Positions 5,561-60,516 of a stretch of 64,000 nucleotides of DNA are shown here, in pieces. The number at the start of each line of letters is the position of its first letter. The stretch's first letter is position 1. Position numbers and translations under genes: made by a program. The stretch is from assembly GCA_041651015.1 (NCBI GenBank), contig JBAZKA010000002.1:6163-70162 (forward strand), written 5' to 3'. Origin of the DNA: Patescibacteria group bacterium (GTDB taxonomy: Bacteria > Patescibacteriota > Patescibacteriia > Magasanikbacterales > GWA2-37-8). The notes under the pieces were generated by a model. That model made no database searches. It had not been told where the DNA came from and saw nothing but the letters and a program-made list of their open reading frames with translations.

Positions 5561-5599
5561 AAACGAATACAATAACTTTGCCTAACACGAAAATAGTTT

Positions 5600-7408: not shown

Positions 7409-7410
7409 CT

Positions 7411-9228: not shown

Positions 9229-9230
9229 AT

Positions 9231-10007
9231 ATGGGTATGAAAAAAAATATTATCTACAACGACGATTGCATAAACATACTTAACACGAAGATTGATAAGA
9301 GTTCTATTGATCTTGTCTTTGCCGACCCTCCGTACAATTTATCTGGCAATGGTCTAAAATGGCAGGGCAGCAAAACTGGTGGAGATTGGTATATGGTGAA
9401 TGAGCATTGGGACAAAATGACTGCCCCTGAATATCTACAATTTACCAGAAAATGGATCGGGGCTTGCCATAAAATTTTAAAAGACACAGGATCAATTTAT
9501 ATTGCATGTAGTTACCACAATATCGGTGAGGTAATGATTGTTTTGAAACAATTAGATTTCAAGATAAATAATATTATTACTTGGTACAAAACAAACGCCA
9601 TGCCGAATATGACAAGGAGGGTGTTTACTCACGCAACAGAATTTGTAATTTGGGCTGTTAAAGGTAGTGGATGGACTTTTAATTATAAAGATCTTAAAGA
9701 AATAAACCCTGAAAAACAAAAAGACGGAACCGAAAAACAAATGCGTGATTTTTGGGAATTACCCTTAGTTCAAGGCAAGGAAAGAATACGCGGAAAAGAC
9801 GGCAAAGCGTTACATCCAACTCAAAAACCAGAAGAAATGTTAAAAAGAATCATTTTAGCCAGTTCCAATGAAGGCGATACTGTTTTAGATCCATTTTTAG
9901 GAAGCGGGACAACTGCCGTTGTGGCTAAAAAATATGGTCGCAAGTGGATTGGGATTGAAAAAGAAAAGCAATATTTTAAGATTGCTGAAGAGCGAATAAA
10001 AAAATAA
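9231..10007 (+). CDS. beta-class N4-cytosine/N6-adenine DNA methyltransferase
   Basis: DPPY (FADPPYN) N-terminal and FxGxG (DPFLGSGTT) C-terminal, which is the beta-class order; ATG 9231 chosen to avoid overlap with upstream stop at 9228. Confidence 0.8.
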   Translation: MGMKKNIIYNDDCINILNTKIDKSSIDLVFADPPYNLSGNGLKWQGSKTGGDWYMVNEHWDKMTAPEYLQFTRKWIGACHKILKDTGSIYIACSYHNIGEVMIVLKQLDFKINNIITWYKTNAMPNMTRRVFTHATEFVIWAVKGSGWTFNYKDLKEINPEKQKDGTEKQMRDFWELPLVQGKERIRGKDGKALHPTQKPEEMLKRIILASSNEGDTVLDPFLGSGTTAVVAKKYGRKWIGIEKEKQYFKIAEERIKK

Positions 10008-10011
10008 ATTC

Positions 10012-11154: not shown

Positions 11155-11158
11155 ATTT

Positions 11159-12892
11159 ATGCCGGAAGTAAAAATTTCAGCTGAAGTTATCTCTGTCTTT
11201 CCAAACAAGGTTAGAATAGCAGTAAGCGATATTGAATCGTTTAAAATAGCTGGGGAACTCTTGGCGGTCGGCTCATATCTCAAAATTTTTGACAACAACG
11301 ACTGTTTTATTGTTGCAATAATAGAAAATTTCTCTATCGTGATGTCTGATCCAGATAAGGAAGGAAAAAGAGATAAGTCCTATATAGTCGAGGCTGTGCC
11401 TCTCGGATTTATCAATTCGAGTGGCGAATTTATTCGAGGTGGCAATAATATTGCAATTCCTCCAAAAACAGTCGAACCAGCTAAAAAAGAAGACATACAA
11501 AAAATATATGACGACATCAAAGATAAAGATCGATTTTGTTTCTCAAAATTAGCTCAAGACACCTCGATAACTGTTCCTGTTGATGGAAATAAATTTTTCA
11601 ATAAACACATCGCCATAGTTGGGTCTACAGGATCCGGTAAATCACATGCTTTGGCAAAAATAATTCAAGAGGCTATAAAAGAAAAAAATATTGGTTATAA
11701 TGGTTTAAATAATTCTCATATAATTATTTTCGACATTCACGATGAATATAAAACTGCGTTTTCTTCAGCCTCATACATTAACGTCGACCAATTAGTGCTC
11801 CCATATTGGCTTATGAACTCGGACGAACTCGAAGAATTGTTTTTAGAATCAGGTGATTTTAATAATTATAATCAAAGCTCAATCCTAAATAGGCTCGTCA
11901 CCGAGAATAAAAAATTAAATAACCCTGGCCAAAAAATCGAGTACGGTAGTCCAGTTGTATTCAAAATAAATGAAATTTTAAACTGTCTAGTTAACTTAAG
12001 CAAAGAGACAAAAAATTATAAAAATCAAGACGAAATTTCTATAAAGGGGGCCTCTAAAACTTTTAGTGGGGATAGTGAAAAATATAAATGTTATTTTGAA
12101 AAAATATTAGAATTTGAAGAACCGAAAGCGCAAAACTTTTCAAAAGGTAGTTTTGCGGATGGAAGTTTGGATAAATTTATCTCTAGATTAAAAAATAAAT
12201 ATTCTGACGCAAGGCTAAAATTTTTATTTGATCCTGCTGTAGAAAGTTTAAAATTTGAAGAAATTCTTCGTCAATTTATTTCTTACAAAACTGGCAAAGA
12301 ATCCAATGTCACAATAATTGATTTAAGTGGTGTCCCCTTTGAAGTATTAAGCATTACAGTATCCCTTATTTCAAGAATTTTGTTTGATTATGCTTATTTT
12401 TATAAAAAAACAAATACTTCATCAATTAACGAAACTCCATTATTGGTGGTATACGAAGAGGCGCATAAATATGTTCCAAAAAATCACTTGGCAAAATTCA
12501 ACGCATCGAGGTTTGCAATAGAGAGAATTGCAAAAGAAGGTAGAAAATATGGAATAACGTCTATAATTGTAAGCCAGAGGCCATCTGAAGTATCTGAAAC
12601 TATATTTTCACAGTGTAGCAATTTCATAGCGATGAGACTAACCAACCCAGAAGATCAAAATTATGTTCGTCGTCTTTTACCAGATACTCTTGGACCACTA
12701 ACAGAATCTTTACCAATACTCCAAGCTGGGGAGGCTCTATTAATTGGCGATTCTGTAGTTATGCCATCACTTGTAAAAATTGACCCATGCACAAATTCAC
12801 CATCATCAAATGATATTAAATATCTTGAAGAGTGGAAGAAAGAATGGAAAGATGTCGCGTTTGATCCAATAATTAAGAAGTGGCAAAAGTAA
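11159..12892 (+). CDS. HerA/FtsK-like (DUF87) ATPase
   Basis: 577 aa. Walker A IAIVGSTGSGKSH, Walker B LLVVYEEAHKY, SIIVSQRPSEV motif; N-terminal HAS-barrel-like region. Confidence 0.75.
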   Translation: MPEVKISAEVISVFPNKVRIAVSDIESFKIAGELLAVGSYLKIFDNNDCFIVAIIENFSIVMSDPDKEGKRDKSYIVEAVPLGFINSSGEFIRGGNNIAIPPKTVEPAKKEDIQKIYDDIKDKDRFCFSKLAQDTSITVPVDGNKFFNKHIAIVGSTGSGKSHALAKIIQEAIKEKNIGYNGLNNSHIIIFDIHDEYKTAFSSASYINVDQLVLPYWLMNSDELEELFLESGDFNNYNQSSILNRLVTENKKLNNPGQKIEYGSPVVFKINEILNCLVNLSKETKNYKNQDEISIKGASKTFSGDSEKYKCYFEKILEFEEPKAQNFSKGSFADGSLDKFISRLKNKYSDARLKFLFDPAVESLKFEEILRQFISYKTGKESNVTIIDLSGVPFEVLSITVSLISRILFDYAYFYKKTNTSSINETPLLVVYEEAHKYVPKNHLAKFNASRFAIERIAKEGRKYGITSIIVSQRPSEVSETIFSQCSNFIAMRLTNPEDQNYVRRLLPDTLGPLTESLPILQAGEALLIGDSVVMPSLVKIDPCTNSPSSNDIKYLEEWKKEWKDVAFDPIIKKWQK

Positions 12893-12959
12893 ATAAAACA
12901 AACAGACAAAAATTCCCTCCCCTTAAACCCCTTCCTTTTTGACTGTTTGTTTGAGAAGA

Positions 12960-13330
12960 AAGAAATAAGGAGTTTTGAATTTTGGGCATTCACCCCTGAC
13001 CCCTCTGCCCAAAATCCAAAACGGAAAAAGAAATTTTAAAATTTTTTAAAACAATTCCGACTGCTGTCGGAAAAAAGAAAAGGAATACATCAGCTAACAA
13101 CGAGTATCCGGTTACGGCTTTCCCCGAAAGCCTCCACCCAAATTTTTCTTTCGCTTCGCTTCAGAAAAACTTCGGATACTCGTAACGTTATATGACATAC
13201 ATGTTTTCCGTTGGGGCTGCCGCCCCGCTCTTAAAAAGAATCCGATTTCGTTTTTTGGTGATTGAGCGAGGGGAAATATAGTGTTTTCTTCGCTACGCTA
13301 CGAAAACCGAATTATTTAATAAAAAATATT
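12960..13330 (+). repeat. island repeat copy 2 (inverted partial core 12960-13030, hairpin aacgagtatccg...cggatactcgt 13088-13197, direct core 13197-13320)
   Basis: aligned by eye to copies 1 and 3. Confidence 0.7.
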
Positions 13331-14137
13331 ATGGCTGACAACTACTACGTTTACGTCTACATTGATCCTCGGAATTACGAGGAATTTTACTATGGAAAAG
13401 GCAAGGGCAACAGAAAAGTAGCGCACCTATATGATGAAAAAGACACAGAAAAAACTAAAATTATAAAAGCCATTCAAAAAGAGGGGCTTGAACCTATAAT
13501 TAAAGTGGTTGCAAAAGGATTATCAGAAAGTGATGCATTTTTAATCGAAAAAACTTTAATTTGGAAACTTGGAAAAAATTTATCAAATATTTCATCGGGT
13601 CATTTTTCAGATAAATTCAGGCCACATAATAGTTACCACCTTAATCTGAATAGTTTTGATTTTGCAAACGGAATTTTTTATGTAAATGTTGGCGAAGGCG
13701 AAACTCGGGCATGGAGAGATTGCCAAAATTTTGGCTTCTTGGCGGCTGGGCAAGGCACAAAGTGGAGCGAACCACTAAAAACATTGAATATCGGTGATAT
13801 TGTCGTGGCATACTTAAAACGAAAGGGATATGTCGGAATTGGTAGGGTAGTCGAAAAAGCCAAGCGGGTACTGGATTTTAAATTTGACGGAAAATCGCTA
13901 AAAACCCAAACTTTAGACAGCACCGATCTCTTTAAAAATTCAGATAATGAGAATACAGAATTTTTGGTCAAAATCGATTGGATTAAAAGCGTGCCGACAA
14001 ATGAAGCGAAGTGGAAAAATAATTCGGGACTATTTACAACACAATTAATTAAGGCATCACTTGAAAACCAGGTAAAAACAATTAATTTTTTAGAAAAAGA
14101 ATTCCATGTTAATTTTACGGACATAATGAACGATTGA
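13331..14137 (+). CDS. GIY-YIG nuclease fused to PUA-like (EVE-type) domain; putative modification-dependent endonuclease
   Basis: N-terminal YVYVYIDP...FYYGKGKGNRK is a GIY-YIG-type motif. C-terminal W-RDCQNFGFL...IGDIVVAYL...GYVGIGRVV resembles the EVE/PUA beta-barrel pattern. Start moved from 13262 to ATG 13331. Confidence 0.55.
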   Translation: MADNYYVYVYIDPRNYEEFYYGKGKGNRKVAHLYDEKDTEKTKIIKAIQKEGLEPIIKVVAKGLSESDAFLIEKTLIWKLGKNLSNISSGHFSDKFRPHNSYHLNLNSFDFANGIFYVNVGEGETRAWRDCQNFGFLAAGQGTKWSEPLKTLNIGDIVVAYLKRKGYVGIGRVVEKAKRVLDFKFDGKSLKTQTLDSTDLFKNSDNENTEFLVKIDWIKSVPTNEAKWKNNSGLFTTQLIKASLENQVKTINFLEKEFHVNFTDIMND

Positions 14138-14265
14138 TATATTTTATAAAATTATTAATTCCGCTAATTTTCAATTCATACTCAAATATACATATTAGTA
14201 AATTTGATTATTGGATTAATTGAAGCCCTTGTTGATAACTTTTTGTTAATAGTATAAAAATGGCT

Positions 14266-14290
14266 AATTTTAGCCATTTTTATAACTACT
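14266..14290. promoter_or_regulatory. palindromic operator-like site AAAAATGGCTAAttttTTAGCCATTTT
   Basis: near-perfect inverted repeat directly upstream of the -35; related GGCTAA..TTAGCC motifs at 15894-15917, 27680-27695 and 27807-27829. Confidence 0.45.
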
Positions 14291-14299
14291 TGACATAAT

Positions 14300-14329
14300 C
14301 AAAAAAATCATTTATAATATCATTATTCC
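14300..14329 (+). promoter_or_regulatory. near-consensus sigma70 promoter (TTGACA-18-TATAAT)
   Basis: TTGACA 14300-14305, TATAAT 14324-14329, about 40 bp upstream of ATG 14371. Confidence 0.6.
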
Positions 14330-14370
14330 TACACAAGTAGTACTTCACACTAAATTAATTAATTTTTCTT

Positions 14371-15096
14371 ATGAATCAAGAAAATAAACAAATAACTCCA
14401 CCATATTTGAGCATGGCAAAACTTGCCAAATTAGTTGAAATCGTGAAATCAAGAAACATGACCCAGGTTAATCCTACTCATTTTATCACTCAAGGATTCA
14501 GTCAGGCAGATGCATACGTTGCAATAAACTCATTGCGCTTCCTGGGTCTAGTAGATGACAACAATAATACCACCGATTTATTTCGTAAATTTCAATTAGT
14601 AGGAGAACAGGGCAAAAAAGGCATGGAGGAAGTAATAAAATCTGCATACTCTAAATTATTTGAATCATTCGCTAATGGGAATCCATACGATGAAGGAAAT
14701 GAAGATAATTTAATAAATGATTTCATGATTCAATATGCTATATCAAAAAGAATCGCGGGACCAGCATCAAAAGCATTTGTTTGGTTGTGCGAACAAGCTG
14801 GACTCAGAGAACAATCCATAAAAATACAAGAAAGAAAAATCCGTGTTACATCAACAAAAAAATTGGCAGATAAAAGTAACAACAAAAACAAACCGCAAGC
14901 TGACACAAAAAATGAAAATCCTACTGGAGTAGCTCTCACTCTTAATGGTGGTATTATCATATCAATACCAACAACGGACATAAGAACATCACAAGCAATT
15001 GCATTGGGCGAACTTAAAAGCGCCGTCGAGGAACTTAATAAGTTTGCATTAAAATATATTGTGGAAACCGAAACTAAAAATAATGATGCTGTATAG
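14371..15096 (+). CDS. hypothetical protein (helical N-terminal domain, Lys/Asn-rich linker, small C-terminal domain)
   Basis: 241 aa with no catalytic motif recognised; first gene of promoter-driven pair. Confidence 0.55.
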   Translation: MNQENKQITPPYLSMAKLAKLVEIVKSRNMTQVNPTHFITQGFSQADAYVAINSLRFLGLVDDNNNTTDLFRKFQLVGEQGKKGMEEVIKSAYSKLFESFANGNPYDEGNEDNLINDFMIQYAISKRIAGPASKAFVWLCEQAGLREQSIKIQERKIRVTSTKKLADKSNNKNKPQADTKNENPTGVALTLNGGIIISIPTTDIRTSQAIALGELKSAVEELNKFALKYIVETETKNNDAV

Positions 15097-15111
15097 CAAA
15101 CTTACCATACT

Positions 15112-15732
15112 ATGAATATCTATCTTGACGAATCATACAATCTCCAAAAAAATAAAGGGAAAATGTTTATAAGCATCAACGGGTTTGCTGTCCTTGATGA
15201 TAAAGTACTCCGCAAACGCTGGAAAATCGTTCGAAAGGATTATTTAAAAATGAAACGACGTATTCACGCGACTGATTCACGCTTTGAGGATCTCCGTGGA
15301 AAAAGTATAAAAATGCTTGGACGTCACGATGTAAATATTCTTTCGATATTCCAACTGACGCAAGAAATATCTCATGACTACTTTGATACAAATGGCATAA
15401 GATTTGATACCGTGTACACTTCTCTTCTTAAAAAACTATTCACTGATTTATCTCTTGGTGAATACAAGCAAGCACGCATAGTTATGGACGCGAGAAAGCA
15501 TAAAGGCGGGATACTTGGGGAAATCATTTTCCAAAAAACTATCGAGGGATTTCTTTCTGATAAATTCCCTTCAACACGCTGTGTGTTAAAACTTACGCCA
15601 TCCTACGCAGACATTCTGATTGAACTTGCAGACTTTGTGTCCAACACATTTTACAAAGAATATCAGCAAGATTCGGAACACATATTCAAGAAACTTGGAT
15701 TTCGGTTGATACAAATCAAAAACCCGCTATAA
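15112..15732 (+). CDS. DUF3800-like protein
   Basis: 206 aa. N-terminal MNIYLDESYN matches the conserved N-terminal D-E motif recalled for DUF3800; sits 15 bp after the upstream gene. Confidence 0.55.
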   Translation: MNIYLDESYNLQKNKGKMFISINGFAVLDDKVLRKRWKIVRKDYLKMKRRIHATDSRFEDLRGKSIKMLGRHDVNILSIFQLTQEISHDYFDTNGIRFDTVYTSLLKKLFTDLSLGEYKQARIVMDARKHKGGILGEIIFQKTIEGFLSDKFPSTRCVLKLTPSYADILIELADFVSNTFYKEYQQDSEHIFKKLGFRLIQIKNPL

Positions 15733-50089: not shown

Positions 50090-52384
50090 TTATTCAGCAA
50101 CTGTTCCGCCGCCAACCAATGTTCTAATCTTTGCCACAATGTCTTTATTATCGGGATTCAACTCTTTAACTTTATAATAATATTGTAAAGCTTGTGTTTT
50201 GTCCCCTTTGGCTTCATACAACAAACCCAAACTATAAAGCGCGTTTGAATATCCTGGTTGTAATCTTATCGCCTCTTTCCAAAGAGATTCAGCATCATCA
50301 CGGTCTTTGTCTTTATTACGATTATACAGAATACGTCCAAAATCGTAGAGAATGGATGCCTCGGATGACCCGCCATTATTTAAGGCCTTCTTGTAAGCGT
50401 CAACCGCCTCATCCATTTTACTTTGTTGTTCGTATGTCCCGGCCAGAGCCACATACGCATCCAGATAATCGGCTTTTAACTCAGTCGCCTCTTTATAACT
50501 CTTTACCGCGTTATCATAATCTTTTGACAAATAATAATTGTTACCGAGACGCAAAGCGAGCAATGGATTGGTCGGTTCCAAATCTTTGGCCGTTTGCCAT
50601 GACTTGAGCGCCCAAGTTCGCGCCTCGGGCACAAGCACGGCCGCGTTCTCATACATCACCGCCAGGTTCTCCCAAATTGCCACTGACTTTGGTGATAAAT
50701 CCGTGGCTGTCCTAGCTTCGTTCACGGCCAATGCCACATTTGAACTTACGTTTTGCAAATCAGCTGAACTGGTACTATTCACCAATTTTACCGCTTGCGC
50801 CAAATACACTTGGGCTAAAGCTGAATGATACAAATCAGAACCATTGCGCAAAGACAGCGCATTTTGCAAATCCGCCTGTGCCTTGTCATAATCCGTTTCC
50901 ACGGTCGCTTTGGCGTAATTCACTTCCGCCATATACAATCTGGCACCCCACACACCAACCATGATCAAACCGGCGAGCACAACAATCATTATAAAAGAAA
51001 AGGTTAAACTATATTGTGGTGTATCTTCCATTTCCCATTGTTTCAATTTTACCACCTCGGAATTGGCAAACGACAAACCAGAAATAACCAAACCGAGAAG
51101 CATCCACCACAACCACCACAACACCGGACCAAAAAATATTATGGACATTGAGCCGGTGAGCACAAGCCACGCCGCCGCTGATGCAAAAATATCAATGCGA
51201 ATATCCGAGTCATCAGAAATATCAGCATTACGCTGAGATAATTGTGACACTCTTTTGAACCATACATTAAAGACATGCCCAACCGCGTACAAAACGACAA
51301 ATAAAATTACCAAGACAAACAAAACCCCGCTTTCAGACATCAAGGCAAAAAATGTTGAGTAGGGCTGACTAAATCTAAGCGACCACACCCATGAATCAGT
51401 ATTAAATTCCACGGCGCGATATTTGGAAAAATCCACATTAAATGTGCCGGGACCGCTACCGATAATAAAGTCCTTTGCGCCGCTCGTAATTGTCTTCAGC
51501 CCGATTGTCCACGAAGGCGATGAGCCCAAAGAAATTTCCGCCGGCACCGATGTCTGCATGGCACGCGGTGTTCCGAAAGCAATAAATACCACGGTCAAAA
51601 CCAGCATGGCAAAAAGCGCCGAGACCCATCCTAGCCGGACTTCTTTCATAAAACTGACGCCAATCAACAAAAGAATGATCAACCCGGCTATTACCACCCA
51701 CCAGAGCACGCTAAAACTTAATAAAATTAAACTAACAAAAGATAAAACCGTAACGGAAAAATACACTAATGTTTTTACTAGTGACAAATTACGCTTCAAC
51801 ATATTGCCGGCCGCGAGAATAAATACGACTGCCATCCATAAACCAAACGGCGTGTTTAACTTATCCACGGTATTCAAGGCGCCGGGAAACATTAAGCCAA
51901 TCAAATCAAAATTAAAAATTGCCTTGATCGCAAATATAAGCGACGTAAATCCGCCCACATAAATTATCACCTCTATCATTTTGTTCCAACGAGACCGCGA
52001 GTTGATGATATTTACAATCAAAAAATAAAATACCGCCAAAAAAATCAAATAGGTATAATTAAAGATAAAATATTCGTTTCGCCCCAAAAATGAATCATAG
52101 CGATTAGCGGAAAAAATTGAGGAAAACAAGGCGACCAGCAAAAGCCCCAATATTGGCAAATCCATGATTGAACGCCGGAACGACAATGACTTGGAAATAA
52201 CCATCTTGGCCACAAATAATATCACATTAACCAAGAGCAGGCATATAAACACATACTGTTTTGGTATGATATAGAAATTCGCCAAATTTTTGTCCATGAA
52301 AAGCGGAATCACCACTGCATTCACCAAAAGAAAAACATAGGACAATGTGTCCAGCACCTTCAACAATTTTTGGTTTGCCAACAT
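50090..52384 (-). CDS. polytopic membrane protein (O-antigen-ligase/glycosyltransferase-like TM core) with C-terminal TPR repeats
   Basis: more than 10 TM helices followed by several TPR-like repeats. Confidence 0.6.
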   Translation of the reverse strand: MLANQKLLKVLDTLSYVFLLVNAVVIPLFMDKNLANFYIIPKQYVFICLLLVNVILFVAKMVISKSLSFRRSIMDLPILGLLLVALFSSIFSANRYDSFLGRNEYFIFNYTYLIFLAVFYFLIVNIINSRSRWNKMIEVIIYVGGFTSLIFAIKAIFNFDLIGLMFPGALNTVDKLNTPFGLWMAVVFILAAGNMLKRNLSLVKTLVYFSVTVLSFVSLILLSFSVLWWVVIAGLIILLLIGVSFMKEVRLGWVSALFAMLVLTVVFIAFGTPRAMQTSVPAEISLGSSPSWTIGLKTITSGAKDFIIGSGPGTFNVDFSKYRAVEFNTDSWVWSLRFSQPYSTFFALMSESGVLFVLVILFVVLYAVGHVFNVWFKRVSQLSQRNADISDDSDIRIDIFASAAAWLVLTGSMSIIFFGPVLWWLWWMLLGLVISGLSFANSEVVKLKQWEMEDTPQYSLTFSFIMIVVLAGLIMVGVWGARLYMAEVNYAKATVETDYDKAQADLQNALSLRNGSDLYHSALAQVYLAQAVKLVNSTSSADLQNVSSNVALAVNEARTATDLSPKSVAIWENLAVMYENAAVLVPEARTWALKSWQTAKDLEPTNPLLALRLGNNYYLSKDYDNAVKSYKEATELKADYLDAYVALAGTYEQQSKMDEAVDAYKKALNNGGSSEASILYDFGRILYNRNKDKDRDDAESLWKEAIRLQPGYSNALYSLGLLYEAKGDKTQALQYYYKVKELNPDNKDIVAKIRTLVGGGTVAE

Positions 52385-52633
52385 AATTATGAATTAATTA
52401 ATAATTATTTATATAGATTTCACGCATTTATTTATTGAATGCGTCTTTACATAATTATATCATATATATAGACCTATGTTAACTGTGCATAAGATAATTT
52501 TCGCGTAGCATCGTTTACCTCGCAACAACAGTAAATATATTTTCTCCGGCAGTCGGTTGCGCACGCGGCACACAAGATTGATAAAATTTATTTATCGCCG
52601 TTAATGTTTTATCAACACACCTGACTACCTTCA

Positions 52634-52659
52634 GTTTGTATACACTAGTGTATACAAAC
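52634..52659. promoter_or_regulatory. perfect 26-bp palindrome GTTTGTATACACTAGTGTATACAAAC, copy 1 of 3
   Basis: identical copies at 53385-53410 and 53644-53669. Confidence 0.8.
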
Positions 52660-52720
52660 ATCCACTTTATGAGCAGGTTATGCACAGACTTATCCACAAT
52701 GCTTTGCGTTGTGTAGGTGG

Positions 52721-52792
52721 GTTCGATTCCTTGTTTTATATATAATAAAAAGCGCATAAATGCGCTTTTTATTATGTGGACCTGGGGGGAAT
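52721..52792. repeat. 72-bp direct repeat copy 1 (contains terminator hairpin AAAAAGCGCATAAATGCGCTTTTT and a copy of the last about 17 nt of tRNA-Ala)
   Basis: identical to 52925-52996. Confidence 0.8.
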
Positions 52793-52924
52793 TCCGCATC
52801 GTCTCGTCCGCCCTAGGCGGACTCGACTCTTTGTCCTGGGCAGCGGCGGACTTCCACCGGAAGTCCGCCGACACTCGTCAGCTCGTTTTTGCTTCCGCAA
52901 AAACTTCGCGCCTCGTTCCTGCCC

Positions 52925-52996
52925 GTTCGATTCCTTGTTTTATATATAATAAAAAGCGCATAAATGCGCTTTTTATTATGTGGACCTGGGGGGAAT
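52925..52996. repeat. 72-bp direct repeat copy 2 (overlaps true 3' end of tRNA-Ala(CGC) and its terminator)
   Basis: identical to 52721-52792. Confidence 0.8.
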
Positions 52997-53051
52997 CGAA
53001 CCCCCGCCTCAGCAATGCGAATGCCGCATAATACCACTTTACTACAGGCCC
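52981..53051 (-). tRNA. tRNA-Ala (anticodon CGC)
   Basis: hand-folded: acceptor GGGCCUG/CAGGUCC with G3:U70, anticodon loop UUCGCAU, T-arm GGGGGTTCGATTCCCCC, discriminator A, CCA not encoded. Confidence 0.8.
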
Positions 53052-53128
53052 TGATGTTGTTTTGCTGGATTATATCACAATAAAAAAATAAATCAAGACT
53101 TCATCTGTTCCCCGCCTGCCATCGCCTG

Positions 53129-53200
53129 TGCCCCCAGTATGAATCGAACACACATCCACCCCTTAGGACGGGGTTGTTCTATCCATTGAACTATGGGGGC
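53129..53200 (-). tRNA. tRNA-Arg (anticodon CCU)
   Basis: hand-folded: acceptor GCCCCCA/TGGGGGC, D-arm GTTC-AATGGATA-GAAC, anticodon stem ACCCC/GGGGT with loop GUCCUAA, T-loop TTCGATT. Confidence 0.75.
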
Positions 53201-53300
53201 TCAGGCAAGGGCGGGCAGGTATCCGCACCGACGCCTATTCGGGGTCGGTGCCCCGACTTTACGTCGGGGTTGAACTACGGGGACGACTATACTTTATTTA
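53201..53300 (-). other. degenerate 5'-part copy of tRNA-Arg with GC-rich hairpin insertions (pseudo-tRNA fragment)
   Basis: minus strand reads ...CCCCGTAGTTCAACCCCGACGTAAAGTCGGGG CACCGACCCCGAATAGGCGTCGGTG..., aligning to the 5' half of the real tRNA-Arg. Confidence 0.4.
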
Positions 53301-53384
53301 TTGTGGCTAGGGGTTGTTCCACACCAGACATGCCTTTCGCGTATCCGAGGCGGGCAGGTCGAAGTTAGACTTCGTGGCCTTTAC

Positions 53385-53410
53385 GTTTGTATACACTAGT
53401 GTATACAAAC
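53385..53410. promoter_or_regulatory. 26-bp palindrome copy 2
   Basis: GTTTGTATACACTAGTGTATACAAAC. Confidence 0.8.
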
Positions 53411-53643
53411 AGACTGATTGTAGCAAAATCCTTACTCATGTGAAACAATCATACCAAACTTTGAAACAAAAATCAAGTAATACAGTTTTCGCCGAAATTA
53501 GCCAAATTCCTAATGTTCCACATGAAACAACGCGTATTCGTGAAAATTGTGGAAAAACCATGCCTGAATTCTGCATATAAATCATGCCTATCAGCACGTA
53601 TTATTGACTAACCAAAATATCTTAACCCCCTATAAATGTACCA

Positions 53644-53669
53644 GTTTGTATACACTAGTGTATACAAAC
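53644..53669. promoter_or_regulatory. 26-bp palindrome copy 3
   Basis: GTTTGTATACACTAGTGTATACAAAC. Confidence 0.8.
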
Positions 53670-53730
53670 TCATGCGCATTACTAAGAATTAATCGCGCCC
53701 AAGCAACAAATGACAGCCTAGAGATCTGTA

Positions 53731-53750
53731 TTTGTTCCACGTGGAACAAA
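53731..53750. promoter_or_regulatory. perfect 20-bp palindrome TTTGTTCCACGTGGAACAAA upstream of rmuC
   Basis: GTTCC-ACGT-GGAAC core; about 150 bp upstream of rmuC ATG. Confidence 0.6.
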
Positions 53751-53898
53751 TAGCAACCCTAGATGACAACATGACTAATAAGTGGTACAATTACAAAAAT
53801 GACGACTATTACCTCATATGATATTAATAATAGCGCTAATCGTGATTGCCCTAACCGCGATCATCATATATACTAGTATCAAAGATAAAATATAATCT

Positions 53899-54978
53899 AT
53901 GAATACCTTTTCAATTCTCGCGTTCTCCGCATTAATTGTCATAACTGCCGCCTTGGTGACAATCATCGTCCGTCTGACCAAAAAACAGGCCACTCCAACC
54001 GACCAAGGCCCCTATCTTTTGATACAAAACCAGATTCAGGAACTGGCCCGGCTGGTAGACTCCAAAATTTCCGAGACAAACAAAGCCATGAACGACACGC
54101 AATCCTCTTTACACAAAACGATTCAAACCCAATTTGGCCAAAATATCAAAGTCATCACCGATATCACCGAGCGTTTAACTAAACTGGATGAAACAAATAA
54201 ACAAATTATTGGTTTTGCCGATCAACTGCAAAGTTTGGAAGATGTTTTGCAAAATCCCAAACAACGAGGTATTCTCGGCGAATACTTTTTGGAAAACGTC
54301 TTGAAAAATGTTTTACCGCCCGGCAGTTTCCAGATGCAATATAAATTTCCCGATGGCGATATTGTGGACGCGGTGGTGTTTGTAAAAGACAAACTCATAC
54401 CAATTGACTCCAAGTTTAGCTTGGAAAACTATAATAAAATCGTGGCAGAAAAGGATCCCGAACGCCGGACTGAGCTGGAAAAACTTTTTAAAAATGATTT
54501 GAAAAACCGTATTGATGAAACAAGCAAATACATCAAACCTAAAGAGGGGACTATGGATTTCGCGTTTATGTTTATCCCGGCCGAAGGAATATATTATGAT
54601 TTACTGATCAACCAGGTCGGGGCAATGAAAATCAACACTCATGATTTGATTGAATACGCTTTTAAGGAAAAACGCGTGATTATTGTCTCGCCAACATCTT
54701 TTCTCGCTTATTTGCAAACCGTCATGCAAGGGTTGCGCGCTTTACAAATTGAAGAAACAGCCAAAGAAATCCGCCAGAGGGTGGAGGATTTGGGCAAGCA
54801 TTTGCTGGCTTATGATGAATATTTAAAAAAATTAGGCAATAATTTGTCCACAACCGTAAACGCCTATAATATTTCTTATAAAGAATTTAATAAGATTGAT
54901 AAGGATGTGATAAAAATCGCCGGCGGTGAAAAAATCATTGAGCCGTTGGTGTTGGATAAACCGAGAATTGATGAGTAA
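53899..54978 (+). CDS. rmuC: DNA recombination protein RmuC
   Basis: N-terminal TM, long coiled coil, RmuC motifs QRGILGEYFLENVL and MFIPAEGIYY. Confidence 0.85.
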   Translation: MNTFSILAFSALIVITAALVTIIVRLTKKQATPTDQGPYLLIQNQIQELARLVDSKISETNKAMNDTQSSLHKTIQTQFGQNIKVITDITERLTKLDETNKQIIGFADQLQSLEDVLQNPKQRGILGEYFLENVLKNVLPPGSFQMQYKFPDGDIVDAVVFVKDKLIPIDSKFSLENYNKIVAEKDPERRTELEKLFKNDLKNRIDETSKYIKPKEGTMDFAFMFIPAEGIYYDLLINQVGAMKINTHDLIEYAFKEKRVIIVSPTSFLAYLQTVMQGLRALQIEETAKEIRQRVEDLGKHLLAYDEYLKKLGNNLSTTVNAYNISYKEFNKIDKDVIKIAGGEKIIEPLVLDKPRIDE

Positions 54979-54982
54979 GCAT

Positions 54983-55010
54983 TGACAAAAATGAAAATTT
55001 GGTGTATAAT
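54983..55010 (+). promoter_or_regulatory. near-consensus sigma70 promoter (TTGACA-16-TATAAT)
   Basis: drives the small ORF at 55068. Confidence 0.55.
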
Positions 55011-55067
55011 CCAAACAAATTCGTTCATTCATCGCGCCTCGGCGAAATCTGAGGCAAGGAGGAAATC

Positions 55068-55259
55068 ATGGCAAAACAACACTGGAATAATCGTCCGTCA
55101 GTCGTGCTGTGGTGGAACGGCAATGAATATATTCCCTGTCAAGTTATCTCGACATCCAAAGGTACTATTCGCATTCGTATCGCCGAGGGAAATTTTGTCG
55201 GACGCACAATCGAGATCGCAAATTCCTCATTGAATCCTGCAAATATGGTTTTGATGTGA
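55068..55259 (+). CDS. small hypothetical protein (63 aa)
   Basis: strong SD AAGGAGG 7 nt upstream of ATG; consensus promoter upstream; terminator-like hairpin at about 55296-55320. Confidence 0.5.
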   Translation: MAKQHWNNRPSVVLWWNGNEYIPCQVISTSKGTIRIRIAEGNFVGRTIEIANSSLNPANMVLM

Positions 55260-55401
55260 TGAAACAGCTCTTTCTTTCCGCAAAACCCCGCCACGTGGCT
55301 CCGTTCTCGGAGTCTTCTTTTTTACTTAGTGAGGGGTTTGACAAAAAATCATTTTTGCGTTATCATTACAACGCTCTCATTTAGAAATCAAATTTATATT
55401 T

Positions 55402-55653
55402 ATGCCAAATAAGCAAAATGCTAAAAAGGCTTTGCGACAAAACGCCAAGCGACGCGCTCGCAACATGGTGCGCAAAGACGCTTTCCGTGATGCTATCAGA
55501 AACGCAAACAAGGCGACAAGTAAAGAAGAAGCTCTGAAAATCGCCCGCGCGGCGCAAAAGGCCTTGGACAAAGCATCCAAAACTCGAGCCATCCGAAAAA
55601 AAACCGCTGCTCGCAAATTGTCCCGCTTGATGAAGAAGGTCAACGCGAAATAA
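55402..55653 (+). CDS. rpsT: 30S ribosomal protein S20
   Basis: 83 aa; Lys/Arg/Ala-rich with typical S20 N-terminus NAKKALRQNAKRRARN. Confidence 0.9.
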   Translation: MPNKQNAKKALRQNAKRRARNMVRKDAFRDAIRNANKATSKEEALKIARAAQKALDKASKTRAIRKKTAARKLSRLMKKVNAK

Positions 55654-55659
55654 TAAATT

Positions 55660-55690
55660 AAAACATCAGCCCCGGGCTGATGTTTTTTTA
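55660..55690. terminator. bidirectional intrinsic terminator
   Basis: AAAACATCAGCCCCGGGCTGATGTTTTTTT. Confidence 0.7.
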
Positions 55691-55707
55691 TTACGCGCAG
55701 CTCGAAT

Positions 55708-56382
55708 CTATTTTTTCTTGGCCGCCATGTCCATGTCCCAAATCATTTTTTGTGTTTTATATACCACCAAACACAGGCCGACAAATGAAAAAGCCAAAAT
55801 AAACGGCAGGACCCGGCCCATATAGGTCTTGCCAAAATATATTATCAATGTGTTGATGATAATAAACAACAAGCGAATTTCCGTCGGGCCGATATACAAG
55901 AAAAATTGCTTAAATTTATTAGTGACCGCGAAATCCAAATATGAATTCACCATGAACGCACCGAGTATGGCCATTACGAAAAAAATTGTGTAATCATAAC
56001 GATCGGGCATAATCAAGGCATAACCAATTAGAACCGAAAACAAGAACATATAATCCAAAAAGTGGTCCATGTAATAGCCCCACTTAATCGTTCCCGTATC
56101 ACGATAACGACCCAAAGCGCCGTCCAGCAAATCCGTGACATACTGCAAAAAAATTGCCAATGAAACCAACCACAACCAATGGACATTGGACTTCGCCATG
56201 TAACTGGCTCCAACTATTATTAGACACCATGGAATTGTCATTAAGGTCAAATGATAGCCTTCCAGCCATAAAGGGATCTTCGGCACGACATAATCGCGAA
56301 ATTTCACATCCCAGGCATAAAAAATAGACGTTCCGAATTTTTTATCACCGGCGAACGAAGTGTTGTCGTCTTTTTCTGGCAT
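55708..56382 (-). CDS. CDP-alcohol phosphatidyltransferase-family membrane protein
   Basis: D-x2-DG-x2-GR...G-x3-D-x3-D pattern (VTDLLDGALGRY...MDHFLDYMF); multiple TM helices. Confidence 0.65.
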   Translation of the reverse strand: MPEKDDNTSFAGDKKFGTSIFYAWDVKFRDYVVPKIPLWLEGYHLTLMTIPWCLIIVGASYMAKSNVHWLWLVSLAIFLQYVTDLLDGALGRYRDTGTIKWGYYMDHFLDYMFLFSVLIGYALIMPDRYDYTIFFVMAILGAFMVNSYLDFAVTNKFKQFFLYIGPTEIRLLFIIINTLIIYFGKTYMGRVLPFILAFSFVGLCLVVYKTQKMIWDMDMAAKKK

Positions 56383-56405
56383 ATTTTATAAAACAATATT
56401 TAATC

Positions 56406-57386
56406 CTATAATTTTCCCACAAACAAATCAACGAGGAAATCATGTTTGGCCACGCCGGTTTTCACGCCGACATCAATATTTAGAAGTTCATCGTAAATAC
56501 GTCGTAAATCTGGCAAACTAAAACGACGGACTTGGGCCAAAGATTTTTTGGCCACGAATGGATGAATACCGAGGGCTTTGGCAATCTGGTCGCTGGTTAA
56601 GTTATCTTCACGCTCCCACAAATCCCGCATCTGCACGAGAATCTTAAACTGCCGGAGCATCATAGCAAAAATATAGCCGTCGTCTTGCCCGAGTTTTCGT
56701 TCATCGGTCAAAAGTTTGTAAGCCAGCTTTTTATTGTCCGCGGCAATGGCATCAATTAAATTAAAAATATTATCTTCAAGTTTTTCCTCGGCAAACAACG
56801 CCACGTCGGCCGAAAGAATTTCGCCGCCTTTTTTGTAGGCGATCAATTGATCAATGACAGAATTAACAAGCCACATGTCTTTGCCAATATCATCGGCAAT
56901 TTTTTGCGCCGCCATTCTATCTATGGACGCGCCGCGCGCCGTGACTTCTTTGACAATCCAATTTACCAGTTCATTGCGGTCCATGGCTGGAAACTCATAA
57001 GCGTATTTTTGTTTTTTCAAAATCTCGGCGAGTTTCTTGGCTTCATTGGTTTTACCGATTGCTTCAGCTTGCCAGATAATCGCTACATTGGCCTCAGGCA
57101 ATTTGTTTTCATTAATTATCTCGGATAATTTATCCAAAAAATCTTTATTGCTGGAAGATAGGGGATTTTTCAAAACAATCATTCGCTTTTCGGCGAGAAA
57201 CGGCAAAGCCAAAAGCTCGCCGACCATTTTATTCGGTTCGTCTTTTTGCGCGTCAAACGAGAGGGTGTTGAAGCCCTGCGGGTCGCGCTTAGCCTTGAAT
57301 TCATTGACGCTTTGGCGCAAAAAGTTGTGGCTGCGCCAATCGTCTTCACCGTAAATATATAGAAGCATAACGGTATCATCATACAA
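56406..57386 (-). CDS. holA: DNA polymerase III delta subunit (HolA-like)
   Basis: 326 aa; clamp-loader-like three-domain architecture; located next to polA. Confidence 0.6.
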   Translation of the reverse strand: MYDDTVMLLYIYGEDDWRSHNFLRQSVNEFKAKRDPQGFNTLSFDAQKDEPNKMVGELLALPFLAEKRMIVLKNPLSSSNKDFLDKLSEIINENKLPEANVAIIWQAEAIGKTNEAKKLAEILKKQKYAYEFPAMDRNELVNWIVKEVTARGASIDRMAAQKIADDIGKDMWLVNSVIDQLIAYKKGGEILSADVALFAEEKLEDNIFNLIDAIAADNKKLAYKLLTDERKLGQDDGYIFAMMLRQFKILVQMRDLWEREDNLTSDQIAKALGIHPFVAKKSLAQVRRFSLPDLRRIYDELLNIDVGVKTGVAKHDFLVDLFVGKL

Positions 57387-57527
57387 TGTTAGAGGCGGGT
57401 TGGCAAATTATAGTGATACTTTTGCCTTTTTAGTTGTTAACTTGTTGACAACTTTTTACCCATTATCAAAAACAAAAGTTGTCAACTGAATGACAATTAA
57501 ATAGACGACTTACCCGATAACACCGGC

Positions 57528-60197
57528 CTATTTCACCTCGCCCCAATTATCCGCCGCGTTCACCTCGGCCACGACCGGCACGCGCAATTTAACCACGTTT
57601 TCCATGGCTTCTTTTATTATTTTGGAAACGTCATCAATCAAATTTTCTTTCACTTCAAAAATCAACTCGTCATGAACCTGCAACAACATCCTCGCGTCTT
57701 CAGACGAATATTTATTTAGTGCGCTGTTCACCGCCACCATCGCCATTTTCATGAGGTCGGCAGCCGTGCCTTGCACCGGATGGTTGATGGCCATGCGCTC
57801 GGCGCCGGAACGGATCTGATAATTACTCACATTAATTTCCGGAATATAACGCCGGCGTCCAAAAAGAGTTTCCACATAACCGGACTGGCGCGCGAACTCC
57901 AGCGTGGAATCTAAATATTTTTTCACCCCGCTGAATTGTTCAAAATATTTATCAATAAATTGTTTGGCTTCGTATTGAGTCAAGTCCACTCGCGCGCTGA
58001 GCCCGTACGAGCCCATACCATAAAGCACGCCAAAGTTTACCTGCTTGGCGGCGCTGCGCATTTCCTTGGTGACCTCGTCCAACGGGACGTTGTTCACAAT
58101 CGCGGCCGTGGCTCTATGAATATCCTCGCCCTTCTCAAAAATCTCAATCATTTTTTTGTCTTCGGCGAGCGAGGCGACAATGCGAAGTTCAATCTGTGAA
58201 TAATCAGCGCTGATTAATTTATTACCGGATTCAGCGATAAAACATTTACGAATTTCATTGCCCAATTCCCCGCGGATGGGAATGTTTTGCAAATTCGGGT
58301 CCGAGCTGGACAGGCGTCCGGTGGCGGTAATGGCTTGGTTGTAAGTGGTGTGCACGCGCCCGGTTTTGGGATTTACTAATTTTGGCAACACGTCCACATA
58401 AGTATTTTGCAATTTGGTCAGCTCGCGCCATTTTTCTATTTCATCAATAATCGGATGAAGTCCGCGCATTTTTTCCAATTCGGCTTGCGCCGTGGACAAA
58501 CCGGTTTTGCCTTTTTTGATGCCAAGCGCGGGAATGTCCATTTTTTCAAACAACACTTCGCGTAACTGGTTAGGCGAACCAATGTTGAATTCTCCGCCGG
58601 CATGCTCGTAAATCTTCTCCGTAATTTGCTTAACTTCGCACATCAGATGTTCGGACAAACGCTGTAATTCTTTCAAATCAATTTTCACGCCGTTTAACTC
58701 CATCCGGGCAAGTATCAAAGCCACTGGGATTTCCAATTTGACAAGCAAGTCTAAATTGTTGGCCGTGGATAATTCATTTTCTAAAATTAATTTTACCGAG
58801 GAAATCCGGCACCAATCTTCGGCCTCGGCGCGTTTATCAATGCCGAACAAACCGGCCTGACCGGCGCCGACTTTTCTTTCCGAACCCAAATATTTCAAAG
58901 CCAAACTATTTTCGTCATGCGCCCGCGTGCCCGGGTTCAACAAGTACGAAGCGAGCATCAAATCAAAAAGTTTGCATTTGACGTTCACGTTGCGCAAAAA
59001 TAATATTTTTACGAATTTCTTTATATCATGAACACATACTTCAATTGACTCGTCAGAAAAAATTTCCGTCAAATTATCAAATAAATTTTCCGGAATAAAA
59101 TACGCGTTATTATCAATTGCCGCGACAAAACCTTCTGGTTTGAAACTATAAACATCGGCATTAACGCCAATGACTTTGAACGCCACCGAACCAATATCTT
59201 TTATTTTTTTAATCAAATCTTTGGCGCCGGCCTTGTCCGCAATTTCATAATACTCAATATTCTTGGCGGTAATTTTTTTGTTAGTCTTTTTTTCCATTTT
59301 CGGCATTTCAGATTCCTCGCCCGGCAAACGACGCACCAATGAATAAAATTCCAACTCACGAAAAATATTAATAACTTTTTCCCGGTCAAAATCCTTGGCT
59401 CGGCATTGTTCCAAATTAAAATCCACATCCGGCACGTCCTGATCAATCGTCGCCAAATCATAACTCATTCGCGCGCTGGCCTCGCCATCAACCAATTTTT
59501 TTATCACGCCGGGTTTAATTTTTTCTTCAATTCCCGCTATTTTTATTTGTTTATATATTTCTTCCAGATTACCAAACTTCTGCAAAAGATCCACTGCGGT
59601 TTTTTCACCAATGCCGGGCACGCCCGGAATATTGTCTGACGCATCGCCGCGCAAAGCTTTATAATCTATCATTTGGTCGGGTGAAAAACCAAAAGTGTTT
59701 TTTACTTCTTTCGCGTCATACACCACGGTGTCGCTCATGCCTTTGCGCAAAGTAAAAACTTTTGTATTTCCACCCACAAGCTGCAGAGTGTCTTTGTCGC
59801 CGGTGACGATCATGATTTCCAAATCAGAATTATTTTTGTTTTTCTTTACCACGGTGCCGATGACATCATCAGCCTCATAACCGGATTTTTCGTAAATCGG
59901 GATATTAAACGCCTGCACTAAATCATGCACCAGAGGAATCTGATCATATAATTCTTGGTCGGCTTTAACGCGGGTGGCTTTGTATTTATCAAATTTTTCG
60001 TGGCGGAAAGTCGGGCCCTTCACATCAAAAGTCACCGCGATATATTCAGGTTTCAAATCATGCCAAGCCTTGAGAAGCATGGAAGCAAAGCCGTAAACCG
60101 CATTGACCATACGCCCATCTTTGGTGGTCATCGGAGGTAGGGCGTGGTAGGCCCTGTGTATTATTGCATTACCGTCAATAATAATTAATCTTTTCAT
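57528..60197 (-). CDS. polA: DNA polymerase I
   Basis: 5'-3' exonuclease N-terminus, polymerase motifs A (DYSQIELR), B (RRxAKxxNFGxxYG) and C (QVHDELIFE). Confidence 0.95.
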   Translation of the reverse strand: MKRLIIIDGNAIIHRAYHALPPMTTKDGRMVNAVYGFASMLLKAWHDLKPEYIAVTFDVKGPTFRHEKFDKYKATRVKADQELYDQIPLVHDLVQAFNIPIYEKSGYEADDVIGTVVKKNKNNSDLEIMIVTGDKDTLQLVGGNTKVFTLRKGMSDTVVYDAKEVKNTFGFSPDQMIDYKALRGDASDNIPGVPGIGEKTAVDLLQKFGNLEEIYKQIKIAGIEEKIKPGVIKKLVDGEASARMSYDLATIDQDVPDVDFNLEQCRAKDFDREKVINIFRELEFYSLVRRLPGEESEMPKMEKKTNKKITAKNIEYYEIADKAGAKDLIKKIKDIGSVAFKVIGVNADVYSFKPEGFVAAIDNNAYFIPENLFDNLTEIFSDESIEVCVHDIKKFVKILFLRNVNVKCKLFDLMLASYLLNPGTRAHDENSLALKYLGSERKVGAGQAGLFGIDKRAEAEDWCRISSVKLILENELSTANNLDLLVKLEIPVALILARMELNGVKIDLKELQRLSEHLMCEVKQITEKIYEHAGGEFNIGSPNQLREVLFEKMDIPALGIKKGKTGLSTAQAELEKMRGLHPIIDEIEKWRELTKLQNTYVDVLPKLVNPKTGRVHTTYNQAITATGRLSSSDPNLQNIPIRGELGNEIRKCFIAESGNKLISADYSQIELRIVASLAEDKKMIEIFEKGEDIHRATAAIVNNVPLDEVTKEMRSAAKQVNFGVLYGMGSYGLSARVDLTQYEAKQFIDKYFEQFSGVKKYLDSTLEFARQSGYVETLFGRRRYIPEINVSNYQIRSGAERMAINHPVQGTAADLMKMAMVAVNSALNKYSSEDARMLLQVHDELIFEVKENLIDDVSKIIKEAMENVVKLRVPVVAEVNAADNWGEVK

Positions 60198-60516
60198 ATC
60201 AAATTAAGCCACTTGCCCCGTAGCGGTCGCGGAGCGACCTGCTACTGGGGTCTATAATGATAAGTCTTTTCATACCCCGTAGAAGAATTTTGAATTAATC
60301 ATATTTCGTTAATAAACAGGGTCGCTCTTTATTTGCTAGCAATCCCAATTAATCCCGTGGCCGATAAATTGATTTTGCCCTATGGGCAAAATCGTTCAAA
60401 ATTTCTCTACGGGGCATATTTACATCCATTTTACGCTATTCTACGTCCGCTGGCAAACCTTGACGATATCGGCATATCGTGATAATATATGTTTCCACTA
60501 CGAACAGGAGGAAACG

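Follow-up and report, generated by a model that had tools for sequence, protein, structure and literature searches.

The described systems closest to the element reported here are autoregulation of the lambda CI/Cro type and by Fis, the small MerR-type regulators BldC (of Streptomyces) and GlnR/TnrA together with the Xis-type excisionases, RacA and its ram sites in Bacillus subtilis, the Fis, IHF, Spo0A, CtrA, MtrA and HP1021-type factors (oriC, datA, DARS), and the parS/ParB centromere sites. Direct repeats are bound by BldC and Xis in a head-to-tail arrangement; RacA contains a long coiled coil, and its ram site is a GC-rich palindrome of 14 bp. Here we describe a perfect 26-bp palindrome, GTTTGTATACACTAGTGTATACAAAC, that occurs three times in one intergenic region of a Patescibacteria group bacterium of the GTDB order Magasanikbacterales (assembly GCA_041651015.1, contig JBAZKA010000002.1, positions 6,163 to 70,162 of the forward strand; the whole 64,000-nucleotide (nt) stretch is called the window below). 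From its distribution and surroundings in related genomes, we consider it probable that these palindromes are operators of a conserved, autoregulated, dimeric helix-turn-helix (HTH) protein, most likely the small protein that we call HTH118, in a region that carries DnaA boxes and parS sites. The 26-bp palindrome would then be a newly recognised instance of a conventional element, an operator through which a conserved HTH protein regulates its own gene. One unusual feature is that, in a region with parS sites, it is coupled to DnaA boxes at fixed distances, which leaves room for a role in the cell cycle or in chromosome organisation.

Direct reading and a pattern search gave three exact copies of the palindrome in the window, all of them predicted operators: copy 1 at 52634..52659, abutting an array of DnaA boxes, copy 2 at 53385..53410 and copy 3 at 53644..53669. 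No further copy was found in the 64 kb with up to three mismatches allowed, and none arose in 100 dinucleotide-preserving shuffles. A 20-bp palindrome, TTTGTTCCACGTGGAACAAA, occurs once, at 53731..53750, and was likewise absent from the shuffles; both the copies listed in an earlier note on this DNA and its judgement that they are beyond chance are therefore confirmed. The two palindromes are different elements. The 26-bp palindrome is itself the repeat unit, as the flanks of the three copies are unrelated except for one or two bases, and the surrounding 1.5 kb of non-coding DNA is bounded by the gene for a 764-amino-acid (aa) tetratricopeptide repeat (TPR) membrane protein and by rmuC.

Conservation was assessed by scanning one genome per GTDB species with the core pattern TGTATACACNNGTGTATACA, for which all per-genome counts are lower bounds. 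The core was present in at least 118 stretches from ~77 assemblies, giving 145 sites with the window's three included, and the carriers were nearly all metagenome-assembled genomes (MAGs) of Patescibacteria (Magasanikbacteria, Uhrbacteria, Falkowbacteria, Kuenenbacteria and others). Among the matches listed, an assembly had up to three loci and up to ~7 sites with the strict core. Positions that the pattern left free also were conserved (T at –11, 98%; T at –12, 84%; purine (R) at –13, 81%), and the centre dinucleotide was TA in 67% and AA/TT in 26%, with TG, AT and CT also seen. The full motif is rTTTGTATACAC-WW-GTGTATACAAAy, a 24–26-bp dyad of which the window copies are perfect instances. 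Flanks had diverged beyond alignment across loci, and in the closest relatives (RmuC 81–85% identical) nothing in the intergenic DNA still aligned apart from the tRNAs and the palindromes with their neighbouring DnaA boxes, which amounts to a phylogenetic footprint. The sites were syntenic among genomes in which RmuC is just 35–85% identical. A local oddity or a chance occurrence was ruled out by the stretches found elsewhere and by the conservation at unconstrained positions.

Dozens of GTDB-representative Third Party Annotation (TPA) records titled 'uncultured Gammaproteobacteria', as well as one titled 'Neisseria' and one 'Syntrophomonas', carry Patescibacteria-type loci, with the pair of genes for HTH118 and an extracytoplasmic function (ECF) sigma factor described below. 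Because their RmuC and TPR proteins are 60–85% identical to those of the window and of Magasanikbacteria-labelled MAGs, we take the 'uncultured Gammaproteobacteria' titles as placeholders or mis-binnings. Five Porphyromonas matches and single Nitrotoga and Bacteroidota matches were set aside as a different repeat or chance. The Porphyromonas repeat, TGTATACACGCGTGTATACA(A/G)TTGTGTACACGTGG, lies near contig ends in two MAGs (loci L007, L008, L027, L069 and L081; L numbers denote fetched loci throughout) and has only the core in common with the Patescibacteria motif. Nothing relevant on the motif (queries TGTATACA with 'palindrome', and GTGTATACAA), on its protein, or on DnaA-box or transcription-factor motifs of Patescibacteria was found in the literature searched, and a publication may exist elsewhere.

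To characterise the company kept by the palindrome, flanking open reading frames (ORFs) were clustered and the clusters then identified with Pfam. The first cluster (n = 37) is a ~118-aa protein with an HTH_17/excisionase-type HTH (E = 1.7e-5, just under the Pfam cut-off), and the second (n = 36) is an ECF-type sigma factor encoded divergently from the small HTH gene. The others are RmuC (n = 12), a dksA/traR-type zinc-finger protein (n = 10), a TrmB-like regulator (n = 8), with the palindrome downstream of its gene, and the TPR membrane protein (n = 5). By tblastn, the small HTH gene was present at 48 of the 118 loci, 47 of which had the sigma gene too, and the HTH gene promoter is the commonest context of the palindrome (48 loci).

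The promoter of the HTH gene, seen in locus after locus, is strong and of the sigma-70 type (TTGACA-N17-TGnTATAtT, with an extended –10). Its –10 runs directly into a degenerate copy of the palindrome, typically TTTGTaTAgACTAaTCTATACAAA, which overlaps –10/+1, and one or two perfect palindromes lie upstream, ~80 and ~160 bp away. Where perfect copies are paired, they are spaced 81–84 bp apart, or ~8 helical turns. A dyad-symmetric site is thus conserved while its flanks diverge, and the site overlaps the promoter of the presumed regulator itself; this is the arrangement classically seen where a dimeric regulator represses its own gene with the help of auxiliary operators. Since loci found by the pattern are biased towards having the motif, we also carried out the reverse test and fetched four loci (L120, L124, L125 and L126) via homologues of the HTH protein. 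Their sites do not match the strict pattern, and each locus has two or three near-palindromes (1–3 mismatches) no more than 200 bp upstream of the HTH gene, in the same promoter-operator layout as at the pattern-found loci; no near-palindromes were found in shuffles of these four loci. The HTH/sigma locus was present in 20 of the 24 assemblies with at least two captured loci.

In substance, these results bear out the earlier suggestion that the palindromes are operators of a dimeric repressor, given a motif conserved in dozens of genomes that overlaps –10/+1 of the small HTH gene promoter at 48 pattern-found and four protein-found loci. The accompanying idea that rmuC is under damage or competence control is not supported: the position of the palindrome with respect to rmuC and tRNA-Arg varies in relatives, the recurrent neighbours include no LexA gene, and a gene other than rmuC is the commonest target.

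The HTH and sigma genes belong to a divergent conserved cluster seen in L120 (1833–12241) and ~47 other loci. On one side are the ECF sigma factor, for which the best NCBIfam match, under cut-off, is the BldN family, a DUF5667 protein and a ~1255-aa protein; on the other are the small HTH_17 protein and a ~580-aa protein without a family.

At the dksA-like loci, the palindrome precedes the –35 of a conserved promoter by 0–65 bp. This promoter, TTGACA-N17-TATAAT, lies between the palindrome and DnaA boxes on one side and the dksA/traR-like gene on the other (L002, ~3880–4240, with equivalents in L026, L043, L046, L089, L092, L093, L112 and L117), and is followed by a conserved non-coding stretch of ~325–400 nt with an intrinsic terminator at its end. 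No Rfam family matched this stretch at the gathering score or at E < 5, and it is a candidate for an unannotated structured RNA of these Patescibacteria.

HTH118 is our name for the small HTH_17/excisionase/MerR-like winged-helix protein, of about 105–135 aa, encoded at these loci. The family comprises at least 1263 clusters at 90% identity; across 32 diverse members ~50 columns do not vary, and these include a WKIKNPLYSP segment near the C-terminus. It matches Pfam HTH_17 and the TIGR01764 'excise' model just under their cut-offs, and no relatives were detected by sequence in the PDB. The AlphaFold (AF2) model is confident at residues 20–79, with the order strand-helix-helix-hairpin-helix-helix, and the best matches in a fold search were mycobacteriophage Xis, BldC, RacA and MerR/GlnR DNA-binding domains; those with BldC, GlnR/TnrA and Xis cover residues about 20–70 with a template modelling (TM) score to the target of 0.65–0.76. 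The near-invariance of both protein and site fits a predicted cognate pair.

We therefore propose the following model. The palindrome would be a high-affinity operator for a protein that is conserved in Magasanikbacteria-like Patescibacteria and binds DNA sequence-specifically as a dimer, with each HTH118 monomer reading one TTTGTATACAC half-site across a non-contacted WW centre. HTH118 would repress its own strong promoter through the weakened copy over –10/+1, and the one or two perfect copies upstream, ~82 bp apart, would assist by cooperative binding. In the window, occupancy of the three sites would control the flanking transcription units, and at copy 1 the bound protein may compete or cooperate with DnaA.

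What this model has in common with lambda CI/Cro-type and Fis autoregulation is a weak site on the –10/+1 of the regulator's own strong promoter, with stronger sites upstream at the ~82-bp helical-repeat spacing. In contrast to CI and Cro, HTH118 is predicted to have an excisionase/MerR-like winged helix and not the lambda-repressor fold; in contrast to the sites of Fis, the palindrome motif is far more information-rich, and its function here is a prediction. BldC, GlnR/TnrA and the Xis-type excisionases provide the best structural matches of HTH118, but the palindrome is a perfect dyad, not a direct repeat, and no integrase or mobile element is nearby. The likeness to RacA and ram lies in a MerR-like winged-helix domain, with a RacA-DNA complex among the fold matches, and in a palindrome within what is plausibly an origin-proximal domain. 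HTH118 differs from RacA in carrying a short basic tail, which is conserved, and in its clear autoregulatory promoter, and there is no detectable sequence similarity between the two.

Candidate promoters in the window, predicted by a consensus scan only, place the three copies differently. On the minus strand, a TG-extended TTCACA-16-TACAAT (53417..53444; 10/12 consensus) points into copy 2, a GC-rich leader, tRNA-Arg and tRNA-Ala; copy 2 starts 6 bp downstream of its –10 and could block it directly. The rmuC promoter candidate, ATGACA-17-TACAAT (53763..53791, plus strand; 10/12 consensus), is 13 bp past the 20-bp palindrome, and copy 3 is ~94 bp upstream of its –35. The candidate for the 764-aa TPR gene, TTAACA-17-TATAAT (52454..52482, minus strand; 11/12 consensus), is ~150 bp from copy 1. 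Copies 1 and 3 thus occupy upstream positions relative to candidate promoters.

Copy 1 is accompanied by DnaA boxes, which we defined as TTATCCACA with at most one mismatch. Two tandem boxes on the plus strand, TTATGCACA (52678) and a perfect TTATCCACA (52690), together span 52678..52698 and start at +31/+43 from the centre of copy 1. A degenerate third DnaA-like box, ACATCCACT (52658..52666, plus strand; three mismatches, weak), overlaps the edge of the palindrome, at a position that holds aTATCCACw or ATACACA in other loci. Boxes with one mismatch are found at 52609..52617 (TTATCAACA, plus strand), at 52484..52492 (TGTGCATAA, minus strand), adjoining the –35 of the promoter candidate for the 764-aa gene, and between copies 2 and 3 at 53548..53556 (TGTGGAAAA, minus strand). 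A box oriented like TGTGCATAA also lies about 95–145 bp upstream of the orthologous TPR gene in L040, L098 and L086. Overall, there are four boxes in 52484–52698, compared to ~0.5 per kb in the rest of the window. The earlier note had missed both this cluster and the identity of the 20-bp palindrome, to which we return below.

DnaA boxes no more than 45 bp from a palindrome came to 0.8–1.24 outside the HTH/sigma loci and to 0.04 at these loci, against a background of ~0.05 per 100 bp, a 16–25-fold enrichment beside the non-HTH-locus palindromes. Box starts form sharp peaks 31 and 43 bp from the palindrome centre, with the boxes pointing away from the palindrome. Both boxes were found at +29/41, +31/43 or +33/45 for 12 oriented sites (copy 1 of the window and 11 other loci), and 16 further sites had one box in register, where ~0.8 are expected from background density. 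In L041, L011, L046, L074 and L088 the boxes are sandwiched between two palindromes, 67–125 bp across.

The 20-bp palindrome appears to be an ordinary parS site, a known kind of element separate from the 26-bp palindrome. Its 16-bp core (53733–53748), TGTTCCACGTGGAACA, has one mismatch to the ParB-binding consensus TGTTNCACGTGAAACA (as printed in PMC7022226). A second parS-like site, TGTTCCACATGAAACA (53514..53529), also with one mismatch to the consensus, is 219 bp from this core. Perfect TGTTTCACGTGAAACA sites, two to four per rmuC/tRNA-Arg intergenic region, are present in L098, L086, L040, L058, L070, L082 and L084. ParB was absent from the Pfam matches of window genes at 41–63 kb, with no search aimed at ParB made. 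The likeness to parS/ParB centromere sites is restricted to the 20-bp palindrome: the half-sites of the 26-bp palindrome are longer (TGTATACAC against TGTTCCAC), with a 2-bp centre, and the 26-bp palindrome co-occurs with canonical parS and does not replace it. Repeats resembling a parS half-site, TGAAACAA, are found at about 53441, 53461 and 53522 (region 53437–53530), between copies 2 and 3 in the neighbourhood of the imperfect parS at 53514, and could be remnants of further parS sites that have decayed.

We asked whether the region might be an origin of replication. Because the cumulative GC skew keeps falling on both sides of 52–54 kb with no switch there, dnaA is absent from the 64-kb window by tblastn, and the dnaA-dnaN spacer of L041 has DnaA boxes of its own without palindromes, we rejected oriC for the window region and kept the description 'DnaA-box cluster in parS region'. 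Reading of the sequence after the tandem boxes revealed no DnaA-trio periodicity or clear unwinding element; an AT-rich stretch (52385–52475) exists and doubles as a promoter region. In L041, the sandwich is 3 kb away from the dnaA-dnaN spacer, upstream of ychF. A palindrome locus is 3–5 kb from dnaA in L041, L045 and L113, and L041 and L113 are more distant lineages in which it is the palindrome/rmuC locus that is near dnaA. Together with the parS sites, the L041 and L113 loci make it plausible that the window region is origin-proximal.

Several observations weigh against autoregulation by HTH118 as the main function of the palindrome, or against HTH118 as its binder in this organism. No HTH118 homologue was found by tblastn in the 64-kb window, which is part of a contig of 241,451 bp; the same sequencing run did yield a homologue, but on a 963-kb contig of another MAG, and an accession look-up of ten further homologues found none from the window's MAG. 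The HTH118 model is a monomer that is silent on dimerisation, and its C-terminal third is of low confidence. Perfect copies sit with DnaA boxes and parS, whereas the HTH protein's own promoter often has imperfect copies, and the main role could therefore be other than transcription control. Finally, no fixed geometry of the palindrome with respect to tRNA-Arg, rmuC or their candidate promoters was found across relatives, in which the positions vary. With placement unfixed, the conserved features of the rmuC/tRNA locus are the company kept (DnaA boxes, parS and tRNA-Arg(CCT)) and not promoter geometry, which fits a region-associated site better than a promoter-specific operator.

These points lead to an alternative that retains the binder and changes its main role, and we regard it as possible, if doubtful. 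The palindromes could be architectural or cell-cycle sites of an origin-proximal domain, through which the protein modulates DnaA assembly at DnaA-box arrays or, like RacA at ram sites, marks and organises the centromere region, with self-regulation as a side function. As with the Fis, IHF, Spo0A, CtrA, MtrA and HP1021-type factors, which bind beside DnaA boxes, such sites would lie at a fixed distance from DnaA boxes and also near stable-RNA genes, as these palindromes do, but there is no oriC evidence at the window locus and no homology to those factors was found, and interplay with DnaA would be an extrapolation from position. The +31/+43 register of tandem boxes in the window and 11 other loci, the five palindrome-boxes-palindrome sandwiches and the box enrichment all suit this role; the steady skew and missing dnaA at the window, the palindrome-free boxes of the L041 dnaA-dnaN spacer and the lack of a visible DnaA-trio or unwinding element downstream of the boxes do not. 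The two to four perfect parS sites in the same intergenic region of relatives, the closeness to dnaA in L041, L045 and L113, the varied placement relative to promoters at the rmuC/tRNA locus and the RacA DNA-binding domain among the fold matches likewise speak for it. Nevertheless, the clearest conserved architecture is that of promoter and operator, and even at the dksA-like loci the palindrome is just upstream of a promoter. In its fullest form, which we put forward tentatively, HTH118 and the palindrome would constitute a lineage-specific, DnaA-coupled system for the cell cycle and chromosome organisation of Patescibacteria. HTH118 would dock within the parS centromere region and in the fixed register next to tandem DnaA boxes, often in a sandwich, gating DnaA access or assembly or ParB loading and tying stable-RNA and growth genes (tRNA-Arg(CCT), the ~325-nt RNA, the dksA/traR-like gene and ychF) to replication status. 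If true, an excisionase fold would here serve a function analogous to that of Fis, CtrA or RacA.

It is improbable that another protein is the binder, with the small HTH gene merely one of its targets. DnaA itself might read the palindrome as two inverted GTATACACw boxes, as by our reading the half-site GTATACACA is one position off TTATNCACA; a ParB/Noc-like paralogue might do so given the TGT..CAC frame common to the parS half TGTTCCAC and the palindrome half TGTATACAC. However, these regions also hold conserved TTATCCACA boxes and parS sites of the canonical form, and therefore DnaA and ParB probably read their usual sites; moreover, the palindromes of the HTH/ECF loci have no DnaA boxes or parS nearby. 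A TrmB-like regulator is the remaining candidate, with a TrmB-family gene adjoining eight copies, but there the palindrome is downstream, not upstream, of the gene. Our reasons for disfavouring these binders are the presence of canonical DnaA boxes and parS alongside the palindrome and the fact that, of all genes, the HTH gene most consistently bears the motif in its own promoter.

A function in RNA, as a terminator or as a processing or stability signal of tRNA transcripts, or as a LexA/SOS box controlling rmuC, is very unlikely. The 26-mer does fold to an 11-bp stem (–10.8 kcal/mol, z = –3.5), and copies flank the tRNA cluster, but no T-run follows the stem, a terminator scan was silent, and many copies are upstream of promoters, in DNA that is not transcribed. 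The primary sequence is kept over large distances without covariation, and thus protein-DNA recognition is indicated. For LexA, the location beside a DNA-recombination gene, rmuC, is set against the neighbour clusters, which include no LexA gene, and the motif resembles no LexA box known to us. Recombination sites (12+2+12, like hix/res crossover sites) or the hairpin or inverted-repeat ends of a small mobile element carrying the tRNA cluster, both of a kind raised in the earlier note, are hardly credible: the 26 bp can be read as a 2-bp centre between 12-bp arms, the tRNA cluster is flanked by copies 1 and 2, and a 72-nt direct repeat with the tRNA-Ala 3´ end lies between them, but the centre dinucleotide varies freely, the flanks of the copies are unrelated and show no target duplications, sites are syntenic at 35–85% RmuC identity, the recurrent neighbours do not include a recombinase, integrase or transposase, an IMG/VR search with the palindrome gave 0 matches, and loci are few per genome among the matches listed. 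These few loci are all in contexts of a regulatory type, and the palindrome is not the common genome-wide repeat unrelated to regulation that the same note had considered.

Transcriptional and cell-cycle control in Patescibacteria (the Candidate Phyla Radiation, CPR) is almost unexplored; the genomes are tiny and encode few regulators, and almost no members are in culture. The operator reading supplies a predicted regulator-operator pair, consisting of a 24–26-bp motif of near-maximal information content and a nearly invariant ~110-aa protein, with a small candidate regulon: the regulator's own gene, the ECF sigma operon, tRNA genes, the unannotated RNA, the dksA-like gene and rmuC. The fixed spatial coupling of the palindrome to DnaA boxes and parS sites was unexpected. 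Tests of the pair could be run in vitro or in E. coli and need no culture of the organisms, and within fragmented MAGs the motif serves as a marker of these loci. A functional DnaA coupling would point to a means by which reduced genomes link replication with gene expression; otherwise, the pair would be a well-defined, ordinary repressor-operator system.

Other features of the intergenic region and its borders were also documented. On the left is the minus-strand gene (50090..52384) for the 764-aa protein, a multi-pass membrane protein with C-terminal TPR repeats (Pfam TPR families), which is syntenic in L040, L098, L086 and others. On the right is rmuC (53899..54978, plus strand; Pfam RmuC, E = 1.7e-52), whose product is MFA5127687.1; an RmuC homologue is inside the fetched 8-kb block at 21 palindrome loci. 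Two minus-strand tRNA genes were identified by Rfam: tRNA-Ala(cgc) (52980–53051), beyond whose 3´ end lies the module of palindrome and DnaA boxes, likewise in relatives, and tRNA-Arg(cct) (53128–53200), the conserved companion of the region in relatives. Rfam gave no other matches in 52350–53950, even at E ≤ 1.

The 72-nt direct repeat between copies 1 and 2 is exact (52721–52792 and 52925–52996) and consists of the terminal 17 nt of tRNA-Ala(cgc), a hairpin that forms a bidirectional terminator, and 'ggaatcgaac'. Between the two repeats is a 132-nt insert (52793–52924) that is GC-rich and unique and has a very stable predicted fold (–66 kcal/mol, z = –5.25). It has no Rfam match, recurs neither elsewhere in the window nor in any of 127 loci, and resembles a small insertion or duplication at a tRNA 3´ end. 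The segment between tRNA-Arg and copy 2 (53201–53384) is GC-rich, with several hairpins and a partial duplicate of the tRNA-Arg 5´ end (53259–53282 compared to 53163–53198); its folding is unexceptional (z = –1.4), and nothing in related loci matched it. Over 53164–60412 of the window, an independent Logan assembly of run SRR8542065 shows 100% identity, and it ends inside tRNA-Arg (the start of L119); short-read assemblies probably break at this repeat-rich tRNA region. Elsewhere in the window, 5000–15700 combines a low GC content (0.30–0.37 compared to ~0.44 elsewhere) with a positive GC skew, and its large ORFs all lie on the plus strand; this block may have been acquired as an island.

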